The notes below the pieces were generated by a model. It did not search any database. It was not told the DNA's origin and saw only the letters and a list, made by a program, of their open reading frames with translations. The position numbers and the translations under genes were made by a program. A stretch of DNA of 64,000 nt from assembly GCF_044324875.1 (NCBI RefSeq), contig NZ_CP172185.1. One strand, written 5' to 3'. The DNA is from Escherichia coli. Lineage in GTDB: Bacteria; Pseudomonadota; Gammaproteobacteria; Enterobacterales; Enterobacteriaceae. Shown piece after piece: positions 11,854 to 56,130 of this stretch (positions are counted from its first letter, which is position 1; every line of letters starts with the position of its first letter).

Positions 11854-12188
11854 AAGCGCATCCTCTAAGTGTAAATACATCAATGCAGCGTCATGCCGCG
11901 TAATAGATTTATGCTAACCAGTCATTGCCGTTTACGCCACGTTACGGACACTTTTTTACTTTTATACTCTAAATAATTCGAGTTGCAGGAAGGCGATAAG
12001 TGAGTGAGTCCCCAGGAGCTTACAGAAGTAAGTGACTGGGGTGAGCGAGCGTAAGCGCAGCACATGCAACTTGAAGTATGACGAGTATACTGCGAGGGTG
12101 ATCGACCGGCTGGGATTAGATAAGGAAACAGGCTACACTTCGCCTTTGAAAACTCATCATCACGATAAACATAGAGGCGAAGTCCAAC

Positions 12189-14011: not shown

Positions 14012-14899
14012 TTATTCACCGCGCAGGATCTGGCGGAAATGGGAAACCAGCGGACGTTGGTTGGCTTTATGCCAGGCTGCCCATAATTGCGTTGAATAAT
14101 TCATCCACGGCAATTCACGTAATACCACCCCTTCCGGCGCATTATGACGCAGACTATTTTGAATTAAGGCCAGACCTAATCCCGCAGCGACCAAACCTAA
14201 TGCCGTGAGGGGTTCACCCGCTTCCAGGCGAATATCAGGATTAAACCCGGCGTTAACACAGGCGGCGACAAAATGATCGCGAGAATGCGCATCGTCGTTA
14301 TGAATCACCGCAATCCACTGCTCATCGCCAAGTTGTGACGCGACAAGGTTTTCCTCCTGCGCCAGAGGATGATTTTGCGGTAAGGCCAACAACATTCGAT
14401 CATCCAGAACCTGAATATATTCCAGATCCTGCTCGCTGTCGGTGGGCGGCGTATCGACCAGAGAAAAATCGAGACTGCGCTGACGCAGGCCTTCAATCTG
14501 GGTAGCCGGTGGTTGGCTGTAAAGAGCGATATGCACATTCGGACGCGATACACGTAACGTACGTAGCGCCGTAGAAAGCACACCGGAATGCATGGCGTTT
14601 TCGATATAGCCAATACACAAGCCACCATCTTCCCCCCGTCCCAGGCGTTTGCCTAACGACTCCAGGCGGTTGGCGTGTGTCAGCAACGAACGTGTTTCGG
14701 CAAGGAATGTCTGTCCATCAGCGGTCAGGCGAATGCGCTGCTGATTACGCTCAAACAGCGTCAGTCCCAGCCGTTCTTCCAGTTGTGCAATCTGGCGGCT
14801 CAGCGGCGATTGCGAGATATGTAATCGCTCGGCTGCGCGTCCCACGTGCTCTTCTTCTGCGACCACCACGAAGTACTTCAGTTGGCGTAAATCAATCAT
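14012..14899 (-). CDS. LysR-family transcriptional regulator (accessory)
   Basis: ORF 14012..15028; likely start at Met 14899 giving MIDLRQLKYFVVVAEEEHVGRAAERLHISQSPLSRQIAQLEERLG... (LysR HTH); divergent from the aldo-keto reductase gene. Confidence 0.85.
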   Translation of the reverse strand: MIDLRQLKYFVVVAEEEHVGRAAERLHISQSPLSRQIAQLEERLGLTLFERNQQRIRLTADGQTFLAETRSLLTHANRLESLGKRLGRGEDGGLCIGYIENAMHSGVLSTALRTLRVSRPNVHIALYSQPPATQIEGLRQRSLDFSLVDTPPTDSEQDLEYIQVLDDRMLLALPQNHPLAQEENLVASQLGDEQWIAVIHNDDAHSRDHFVAACVNAGFNPDIRLEAGEPLTALGLVAAGLGLALIQNSLRHNAPEGVVLRELPWMNYSTQLWAAWHKANQRPLVSHFRQILRGE

Positions 14900-15031
14900 G
14901 TTAGACCTCAAAGGACTTAAGTCAGACGAATTATGTCCTATCAAGTCACAACCTCGCAAGGTATTGTGATCCACGTCACAGGGCAATAGCAAAAAACGCC
15001 CGAACCCAAACCGAATAATTGAGGACATCTT

Positions 15032-16042
15032 ATGAGCATCAAAAATTTACTTCCCGGCAAAATTGGCTTAGGCGGCGCACCACTCGGCAACATGTTCCGT
15101 GCCATTCCGGAAGAAGAGGCCCACGCCACCGTGAGCGAAGCCTGGAACCTGGGTGTGCGTTACTTTGATACCGCGCCGCTGTACGGCTCTGGCCTTTCTG
15201 AAATCCGCATGGGTGAAGCGCTGTCTCAGTATCCACGCGATGAATACGTTCTGAGTAGCAAAGTCGGTCGCATCGTGCTGGACGAAATGGAAGATCCGGC
15301 AAAACGGGATTTCGGTGAAAAAGGTGGCCTGTTCGAACACGGCCTGAAAAACAAAATTCTGAATGACTACTCTGCTGACGCCACGCTGCGCTCGATTGAA
15401 GACAGCCTGAAACGCCTGAAAACAGATCGTCTGGATATTGTCTGGATCCACGACCCGGCGCAGGACTTCTACGGTGACAGCTGGCTGGAGCAGTTCAACA
15501 TAGCCCGTACCGGTGCGTTTCGTGCGCTGACGCGTTTGCGTGACGAAGGTGTGATTAAAGCCTGGGGACTGGGTGTCAACCGCGTCGAACCTTGCGAACT
15601 GACGCTGGCGCTGGACGAACCGAAGCCGGATGCGTTCCTGCTGGCGGGGCGTTATTCCCTGCTGGATCACGAACGTGCGCTGCAACGCCTGATGCCAGAA
15701 GCACTGGAACAGAACGTGGATATTGTTGTGGGCGGTCCGTACAGCTCTGGCGTACTGGCAGGCGGCGAGCACTTTGAATATCAGAAAGCTTCTGCGGCCA
15801 TCCAGCAGAAAGTGGCGCAAATTAACGCCATTGCCACACGTTTCAATGTGAACGTTAAAGCGGCTGCGCTGCAGTTCGCGCTGGCAAACCCGGCCGTTGC
15901 AGCGGTTATTCCTGGCTCCAGCCGTCCTGGCCGTATGGCAGAAGATCTGGCTGCACTGAATGCGCCTGTTCCGGCTGAATTCTGGGCAGAAATGCGCCGT
16001 CAAAATCTGGTTGCGGAAAACGCTCCGCTGCCGACCCGTTAA
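15032..16042 (+). CDS. Aldo-keto reductase family oxidoreductase (accessory)
   Basis: 336 aa; AKR-like pattern (FDTAPLYG, IVWIHDP, LAGRYSLL); divergently paired with LysR regulator. Confidence 0.85.
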   Translation: MSIKNLLPGKIGLGGAPLGNMFRAIPEEEAHATVSEAWNLGVRYFDTAPLYGSGLSEIRMGEALSQYPRDEYVLSSKVGRIVLDEMEDPAKRDFGEKGGLFEHGLKNKILNDYSADATLRSIEDSLKRLKTDRLDIVWIHDPAQDFYGDSWLEQFNIARTGAFRALTRLRDEGVIKAWGLGVNRVEPCELTLALDEPKPDAFLLAGRYSLLDHERALQRLMPEALEQNVDIVVGGPYSSGVLAGGEHFEYQKASAAIQQKVAQINAIATRFNVNVKAAALQFALANPAVAAVIPGSSRPGRMAEDLAALNAPVPAEFWAEMRRQNLVAENAPLPTR

Positions 16043-54089: not shown

Positions 54090-55754
54090 TTAAAACGTTT
54101 CCCAGTTCTCCCCGCTATCTGCCACGGCTATTTTACGCGGCGCAGCTGGCGTCACGGTTTTTACCACAGCCGATGTTTCACGCTGATGTTGCTGCTGTTG
54201 CTGAATCCGGAACACTGCCACAGCTTCGGTCAGGCGACTGGCCTGCTCTTCCAGCGCGGCGGCGGCAGCGGCAGATTCTTCCACCAGCGCAGCGTTCTGT
54301 TGAGTTACCCGGTCCATCTCAGCGACCGCTAAGCCAACCTGATCGATACCACGGCTCTGCTCATCAGAAGCAGAAGCTATTTCGCCCATAATGTCCGTCA
54401 CACGGGTCACGGCGCTGACAATCTCCGCCATTGTTTCCCCGGCGCTTTCGACCAGCGTAGAGCCAACATCCACTTTCCCCACCGAGTCTTCAATCAGGCT
54501 TTTAATTTCACGAGCCGCCTGGGCGCTACGCTGGGCCAGATTACGCACTTCTCCCGCAACCACCGCAAAACCGCGCCCTTGCTCACCCGCACGCGCAGCC
54601 TCAACCGCGGCGTTCAAAGCCAGAATATTGGTCTGGAAGGCAATGCCGTCAATTACGCTGATAATATCGGCGATTTTCTGCGAACTGGTGGAGATATCGC
54701 GCATGGTCTGCACCACGTTATCCACCACTTTGCCGCCGCGTTGCGCCGTTTCAGAAGCACTTAATGCCAGATGGCTGGCCTGGCGCGCATTCTCGGCGTT
54801 CTGTTTCACCGTTGCGGTCAGTTGCTCCATGCTGGCTGCCGTCTCTTCCAGCGAAGCGGCCTGTTGCTCGGTGCGCGAAGAGAGATCGTTATTGCCGGTG
54901 GCGATTTCGCTGGCACCGCTATAAATGGCATTGGCCCCGTTGCGCACATCACCGACGGTACGCATCAGCTCTCCCTGCATATGGCGCAAACTCTCTGCCA
55001 GTTGCCCCATCTCATTAGAGCCATCCACCTCAATCGGTTTGACCAGATCGCCGCCTGCAATATGACGAATGCTGTCAATCAGGCGATTCATTGGCGCTAC
55101 CAACGAGGCTTTAATACCGAACCAGACGGCGAAGATGACTGCCAGTACGACGATCATCACGCCCACCAGAATCCACATCGCCTGGCTGTAGGAGGCATTA
55201 TTATCGCTGACGGCGATATCATAGAGCCGATCGTTTTGCTCCATGTAAGCCACATACTGCTTCTCGAAACCGTCCTGATATCCCTGGGTTGGCTGATCAA
55301 AGAACTCGTTGATTTTGCCTGCACCTAACAGTTGGATCAGCTCCGCCAGCGCATTGTGATAAATATCGTAATTACGTTTGATCTCTGCCGCTGCGGCGGT
55401 GCTCTGACGCGGGTCACGCGGCAACGCTTCGTAATCCGCCCAGTTTTTTTCCGCCTGTTTCAGCGAAATACTGGCACTCTGCATTAGCTCAGCAACGGTT
55501 GAACCGCTACCAATATTATTCTGATCCATCATGTAGCGGATACCCGCGCGGTTGAGGGTGTTACGCGTCTGCAACAACGCAACCCAGCTGCCATTCAGCG
55601 TGGATTGCTGCTGGCGAATGGTTTGTAAAACAGTGAAATTTTCTTTGTCATTCTTTAAGGCATTAAAGAACAGACCGCCTGATGTCAGTTGTAAAAGGCC
55701 AAAAACGGCCAAAACCAGCAGTAAGCTGGTCACAATTTTGATACGTTTTAACAT
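54090..55754 (-). CDS. tsr: Methyl-accepting chemotaxis protein I (serine receptor)
   Basis: 554 aa; HAMP, methylation helices ([17 protein letters not shown]), C-terminal NWETF pentapeptide. Confidence 0.95.
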
Positions 55755-55902
55755 GGTTTCTCTTTCCTGTGGACCGATGCAAGATTTTCGGCCTGGAAAG
55801 GAAAAACTTTATGAATATCCCGCGGAGATTACGCCGAGTAATTTTATTCACACTCTGAATTTAAAAAACCATTATTTACATAAATTATTCACAATATAAA
55901 TA

Positions 55903-55918
55903 TGTGATATGAATCACA
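55903..55918. promoter_or_regulatory. Consensus CRP site in tsr-btsT divergent intergenic region
   Basis: TGTGA-tatgaa-TCACA inside 26-bp perfect palindrome aaatatgtgatatgaatcacatattt. Confidence 0.7.
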
Positions 55919-56130
55919 TATTTATCGTCACTTAAACGACGCCTTTGCCGCTCAACCGCAAAACTGACCGCTTACATCCCTAAAATAACCACTCAGTTAT
56001 TTACCTTACTTTACGCGCGCGTAACTCTGGCAACATCACTGCAGGATAGCGGTCAATTTACCTCCTCAAACGCAACGCAAACCTAGAACGGCTTCGGCCA
56101 ACTATTAATCAATACATGCCAGGTTTTACT

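Follow-up and report, generated by a model that had tools for sequence, protein, structure and literature searches.

Between the divergent genes tsr and btsT (yjiY) of Escherichia coli lies a striking palindrome, and the locus raises the question of which protein this palindrome serves and which of the two genes it controls. An earlier note on the window (the whole stretch of 64,000 nucleotides that was analysed) had read it as a perfect CRP site, TGTGA-N6-TCACA at 55897-55924 with fully symmetric flanks, set between two genes that it would serve in common. We conclude that the palindrome is a genuine CRP site but one that was already catalogued, and that its divergent setting and its perfect symmetry are incidental. 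Very probably it is the cAMP-CRP site of the btsT promoter, where it co-activates with BtsR from far upstream (−132.5).

Results

The palindrome and its genomic setting

The 376-bp spacer between tsr and btsT is 100% identical to that of E. coli strain MEI003, for which the RefSeq gene order is lgoR-lgoT-tsr<>btsT-yjiX-yjiA-mrr. Compared with K-12 MG1655, the spacer differs at three positions, all of them outside the palindrome, and the 30-bp palindrome itself is identical. Given this near-identity, the K-12 literature is directly applicable to the window. For btsT, the ORF lister places the start at an in-frame ATG at 56116, as against the ATG at 56131 used here, and the best NCBIfam match of the product is the CstA model (1012.8 bits, under the curated cut-off of 1188). 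The features of the locus are collected in Table 1.

Table 1. Features of the tsr-btsT region (window coordinates; minus-signed positions are relative to the btsT start site)
Feature	Position	Strand	Description
tsr CDS	54090..55754	-	Serine chemoreceptor, divergent; NF011615, 1222.6 bits, over the NCBIfam equivalog cut-off
tsr σ28 promoter	55785..55811	-	TAAAGTTT-N11-GCCGAAAA; conserved in 22 loci; outside the CRP module
Perfect palindrome, 30 bp	55896..55925	.	Arms of 13 nt each, centre of 4 nt; encloses the CRP box
CRP centre	55910.5		−132.5 relative to btsT TSS 4591367
R1	55947..55954	+	GCCGCTCA; −96..−89; third, upstream repeat of the BtsR (YehT) type, departing from ACC[G/A]CT[C/T]A at one base
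R2	55967..55974	+	ACCGCTTA; −76..−69; BtsR direct repeat
R3	55988..55995	+	ACCACTCA; −55..−48; promoter-proximal BtsR direct repeat
btsT core promoter end	56031..56043	+	Predicted −10 CAACAT at 56031-56036 (−12..−7); TSS A 56043
btsT (yjiY) CDS	56131..58281	+	Pyruvate/H+ symporter, 716 aa; RefSeq annotation of the strain with the 100% identical spacer

The palindrome was found where it had been reported and proved to be one base pair longer at each end. Its arms (55896-55908 and 55913-55925) are 100% complementary around a 4-nt centre, which is ATGA in this window. Within it, the CRP core TGTGATATGAATCACA occupies 55903-55918 and the 22-bp CRP site 55900-55921. All ten half-site positions match (10/10), as in a two-fold symmetric TGTGA-N6-TCACA site, and the 22-mer agrees with the CRP consensus AAATGTGATCTAGATCACATTT at 17 of 22 positions, the mismatches being confined to the N6 and the outer flanks. 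From its centre it is 220.5 bp to the btsT ATG and 156.5 bp to the tsr ATG (at 55754), in agreement with the distances of about 220 and 156 bp estimated previously. The TGTGA-N6-TCACA core occurs twice in 64 kb, where dinucleotide shuffles lead one to expect 0.05 per 64 kb.

The site in the K-12 literature

The palindrome is the already annotated CRP site of the K-12 yjiY (btsT) promoter. In the genomic SELEX-chip study of in vitro cAMP-CRP binding by Shimada in 2011, Table S3 contains the entry 'yjiY< >tsr TGTGATTCATATCACA' (PMC3105977), and this sequence is the reverse complement of the 16-mer in the window. The Reg-Seq TSS table (supplementary file 1) gives the RegulonDB features for yjiY as 'BtsR CRP', with the remark 'CRP outside of area', where the area runs from −115 to +45 (PMC7567609). 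Both records were pre-existing and uphold the identification as a CRP site: locus, 30-bp palindrome and 16-mer are the same in K-12 and in the window, and the position fits a site outside −115 to +45. In addition, yjiY ranked fourth to seventh among genome-wide CRP predictions in four of six PhyloScan analyses (PMC1794230). At the level of expression, cAMP-CRP is needed for btsT/yjiY besides BtsS/BtsR (PMC5431176, PMC10653868), and PbtsT-lux activity was abolished in a Δcrp strain (PMC7730263). A literature search that included an ETEC CRP ChIP-seq paper and its supplements yielded no in vivo CRP ChIP record for the site, and an exact-sequence text search of the literature covered gave no paper.

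Anatomy of the btsT promoter

The Reg-Seq table describes 4591367 on the reverse strand as the 'only experimentally validated TSS' of yjiY and ascribes it to Kraxenberger 2012 (PMC7567609). For the '0' position of yjiY the Reg-Seq files differ by 30 nt: the source data of figure 1 give 4591397, the TSS table 4591367 (PMC7567609). We preferred 4591367 because it is the sole value that fits the remark 'CRP outside of area' (−115 to +45); the alternative would put the CRP centre at −102.5. When mapped to the window via the btsT coordinates and the indel-free K-12 alignment, the preferred start corresponds to an A at 56043 and leaves a 5′UTR of 88 nt.

Between the CRP box and the first BtsR-type repeat, R1, is a gap of 28 bp (55919-55946), so that R1 begins 36.5 bp from the CRP centre. 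Kraxenberger reportedly described the BtsR motif in 2012 as ACC[G/A]CT[C/T]A, present as two repeats with a 13-bp spacer. We take R2 and R3 to be these two repeats and R1 to be a third, 20 bp further upstream. The −10 element of btsT is predicted to be CAACAT from its position and from a conserved CAnnAT. No good −35 element is present for btsT, as expected for an activator-dependent promoter. A σ70 consensus scan did not detect the btsT promoter, an activator-dependent and weak one, and returned only chance-level AT-rich matches.

A candidate σ54 promoter, TGGCAA-N5-CTGCA at 56028-56043, was rejected. It has the correct −24/−12 spacing, but other genera do not conserve its −12 element and the mapped σ70 TSS falls inside the motif, and we judged it coincidental. 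To our knowledge, LytTR regulators are not σ54 enhancer-binding proteins, which is a further point against a σ54 reading. On the tsr side of the spacer, a genomic SELEX peak for RpoF, recorded at 4589632 between yjiY and tsr (PMC5493296), maps to the tsr σ28 promoter.

A natural swap among E. coli haplotypes

Among 5389 matching E. coli genomes, the whole spacer aligned in 2751 (haplotype A, K-12-like), and the remainder match only from 55948 (R1) on. In haplotype B (2222 genomes) the hpa (4-hydroxyphenylacetate) cluster, hpaR...hpaBC, lies between tsr and btsT, and a different perfect box, TGTGATCTCAATCACA, is found immediately past the hpaC terminator. Haplotype C (363 genomes, mostly O157:H7) has a hypothetical 180-aa ORF upstream and the box TGTGATCATCATCACA. 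Box centre and R1 are 36.5 bp apart in A, B and C alike. The half-sites are 10/10 in A, B and C and the interval from R1 to the TSS is identical at 89-95 of 97 positions, while identity is near random in the 5′ flank (5-9 of 30) and in the 28-nt gap (8-11 of 28).

In hpa+ ECOR29, tsr has an intact σ28 promoter and a 118-bp spacer to hpaR, in which no CRP box scoring at least 8/10 was found; the nearest one to this tsr, matching at 9/10, lies 0.7 kb off between hpaR and hpaG. In haplotype C, 843.5 bp separate the box from the tsr ATG. Across hpa+ and C-type E. coli, the interval between tsr and the box ranges from 0.8 kb to over 11 kb.

The 13-nt-arm symmetry is limited to haplotype A, which has a sub-variant with the centre ATAA, and the arms are broken in E. 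albertii. The fully symmetric flanks claimed for the site thus hold for this strain but not as a conserved property, as E. albertii and the other two E. coli haplotypes attest. Likewise, the claim that perfectly symmetric sites are rare stands for the 10/10 core and does not extend to the flanks, whose additional symmetry is an accident of lineage specific to the K-12-like haplotype.

The segment of the spacer at 55816-55947 is a polymorphic hotspot in E. coli, as seen in the loci examined (ECOR29, L004; UTME-7, L005; L086; L087), with haplotype breakpoints just upstream of the tsr σ28 −35 and at the BtsR repeat R1. An insertion of about 125 bp is present in the btsT 5′UTR of haplotype-B E. 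coli and of E. albertii (L004 6153-6292; also L006, L008 and L018), and places the CRP box 344 bp from the btsT ATG instead of 221 bp. It resembles an ERIC/IRU dispersed repeat, and a relative of it with one mismatch in a 33-nt core lies at 12004-12036 of the window.

Conservation across the Enterobacterales

A scan for BtsT with one genome per species gave 80 loci, ranging from Escherichia, Salmonella, Citrobacter, Klebsiella and Enterobacter to Pantoea, Erwinia, Rahnella and Leminorella. Loci were anchored on the BtsR repeats alone, by means of a flexible triple-repeat anchor that is independent of the CRP box. A repeat search with a fixed 13-nt spacer was unsuited to many species, since most have 12-nt spacers and three repeats. 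Triple BtsR-type repeats with a spacing of 20/20 or 20/21 bp were present in 81 of 81 loci. A repeat stands at the R1 position in every locus; it reads GCCGCTCA in K-12-like strains, and most other species have ACCGCT[C/T]A there without a mismatch.

In 79 of the 81 Enterobacterales loci, the best TGTGA-N6-TCACA-like box was located 36.5±1 bp upstream of R1 with a score of at least 8/10, and 75 of the 81 loci examined scored 9-10/10. The two exceptions are loci in which a fourth repeat displaces the anchor. When the loci were aligned on the box, the half-sites carried 1.56 and 1.96 bits per position, whereas the 5′ flank carried 0.14 and the 28-bp gap 0.37; this gap is of invariant length and starts with conserved TA(T/A)-rich bases. 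The box is conserved in orthologous promoters, in the manner of a phylogenetic footprint for a CRP site. Because the commonest form of the box across the loci is TGTGATCTCAATCACA, the K-12-type N6 (TATGAA) is derived. Only 22 loci have a tsr orthologue as the immediate neighbour, including those of Salmonella, Citrobacter and Kosakonia. Most other loci have no tsr within 3 kb or have other DNA in between, and the box is nonetheless kept.

Which gene the site serves

Judged by sequence comparison, the CRP box travels with btsT independently of tsr, and tsr would function without it. We assign the box to btsT because its position is locked to the BtsR repeats, its spacing to tsr is variable and it is kept in the swapped haplotypes. 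Service to both divergent genes, which the earlier note had implied, is the part of that account that is not supported. A single shared CRP site driving both btsT and tsr, after the fashion of malE/malK or araBAD/araC, might be suspected from its location between the genes at about 132 bp from each start (−132.5 for btsT and 125.5 bp to the end of the tsr −10) and from the recurrence of the tsr<>btsT arrangement in 22 loci. Within those 22 loci, however, the distance from the CRP centre to the tsr σ28 −10 takes 14 distinct values (69.5-131.5 bp), as opposed to ±1 bp to the BtsR repeats, and spacing conserved to both starts, as befits a bidirectionally acting CRP site, was not observed. The persistence of the box where tsr is missing or separated from it argues in the same direction, as do the hpa+ and haplotype C strains described above. 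Moreover, tsr is a class 3 flagellar (σ28) gene, and its CRP dependence is explained through flhDC. A CRP site at flhD is in the SELEX list of Shimada 2011 (PMC3105977). Taken together, we regard a shared site as very unlikely.

Control of btsT by CRP might instead be indirect, through btsSR expression or physiology, with the box binding CRP but having no role at the promoter. The unusually remote position (−132.5), the SELEX CRP site upstream of yehU (btsS) (PMC3105977) and the description of cAMP-CRP as an activator of BtsSR (PMC11508082) would all fit such a scheme, and no mutation of the box was found in the literature searched. It is nevertheless highly improbable: the half-sites and their exact spacing are conserved across many genera of Enterobacterales while the neighbouring bases are randomised, which is why we favour direct function, and both recur in three unrelated upstream segments of E. 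coli. Without selection on function at this promoter, such a pattern would be difficult to account for. Given the SELEX site upstream of yehU, part of the CRP effect on btsT could still be indirect. We give next to no credence to the palindrome being an element unrelated to CRP, such as the operator of another regulator, a hairpin, terminator or cruciform, or a piece of an RNA gene. The 13-nt perfect arms do reach past the 22-bp CRP site, and three weak σ70-like matches in the AT-rich region overlap the palindrome, but a count of three promoter-like matches is within chance (1.3±1.1) and no terminator-like site was found at the palindrome. It lies upstream of both the btsT TSS and the inferred tsr σ28 start, and Rfam returned only a sub-threshold chance hit to Pistol (20.4 bits against a gathering score of 34.5, E 0.22). 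Finally, haplotypes B and C and other genera lack the extra symmetry and have kept only the CRP half-sites.

Discussion

A CRP site serving btsT would stack catabolite control on the two-component signal for extracellular pyruvate. In the absence of glucose, cAMP-CRP would bind the palindrome and, together with pyruvate-activated BtsR, turn on btsT. The predicted order of elements is the CRP box, the 28-bp gap, three direct LytTR (BtsR) repeats on the same face (−96 to −48) and a weak core promoter, which would amount to a co-dependent or 'class III-like' architecture. The centre of the site, at −132.5 (or −102.5 with 4591397), falls at neither the class II position (−41.5) nor the class I positions (−61.5, −72.5, −82.5 and −92.5), and CRP is not sufficient, since btsT is published to need BtsR in addition. 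What is found is the arrangement of a co-dependent promoter, with the second activator between CRP and the core promoter: the BtsR repeats occupy −96 to −48 at a fixed spacing.

Class I activation does not usually extend as far out as −132.5, so we can only infer how CRP acts from there. The likeliest route would be CRP-induced bending combined with docking of the RNA polymerase α-CTD in the gap beside CRP. Analysis of the gap suggests that, being A/T-started and of fixed length, it would be able to accommodate an α-CTD in that place, in the manner of the distal CRP sites of rhaSR, proP P2 and acs. Alternatively, CRP may stabilize the BtsR array, or the bend may help this array to engage RNA polymerase. 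It is possible, though we put it forward with considerable reservation, that the CRP box, the 28-bp gap and the three LytTR repeats form a rigid nucleoprotein module throughout the Enterobacterales, in which CRP at about −132 acts by stereospecific contact, either with an α-CTD in the gap or through CRP-assisted assembly of a BtsR oligomer. If true, this would be an undescribed mode of CRP/LytTR co-activation.

Distal CRP sites occur in other co-dependent promoters, namely araBAD (−93.5, with AraC) and rhaSR (−111.5, with RhaR), and further examples are proP P2 (−121.5, with Fis) and acs P2 (−122.5). The btsT promoter is like these in having a distal CRP site upstream of the sites for a signal-specific activator, with both regulators required. 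It is unlike them in pairing CRP with a response regulator of the LytTR type, for which there are three direct repeats, and in having CRP still further out. The cstA promoter offers another parallel, as it belongs to a CRP-activated gene for a CstA-family transporter and its CRP site, too, is in an unusual place, some 80 nt ahead of the TSS; the difference is that cstA is under σ70/CRP/Fis control without BtsR, whereas btsT is strictly dependent on BtsS/BtsR (PMC7730263). With the shared CRP sites of malE/malK, caiT/fixA and glpT/glpA, the site has in common its place in a divergent intergenic spacer. Unlike in those cases, the spacing to tsr is not conserved, and in about half of E. coli genomes tsr and btsT are not neighbours.

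For genome annotation the impact is little, as the site was already catalogued, and btsT is a textbook case in which catabolite control and a two-component pyruvate signal are combined. The comparison has modest value in assigning the site to btsT and not to tsr. Selection maintains the half-sites and their precise distance from the BtsR array rather than the conspicuous extended symmetry. What novelty remains lies in the conserved module of CRP box, gap and three repeats and in the apparent third BtsR repeat. This conserved module offers a clean system for studying co-activation by a LytTR regulator and a CRP bound at about −130.

Other CRP-like boxes in the window

A weak CRP-like box, AGTAATTTTATTCACA (8/10), is located at 55837-55852, about 66 bp upstream of the inferred tsr start. 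In K-12 this box has a 1-bp insertion that gives AGTGA-N7-TCACA, with the wrong spacing, and the match is probably due to chance. The other perfect TGTGA-N6-TCACA of the window, TGTGATCCACGTCACA at 14965-14980, lies in a 132-bp spacer between a gene for a LysR-family regulator (14012-14899, minus strand) and a divergent aldo-keto-reductase-like gene (15032-16042), and is a candidate CRP site.
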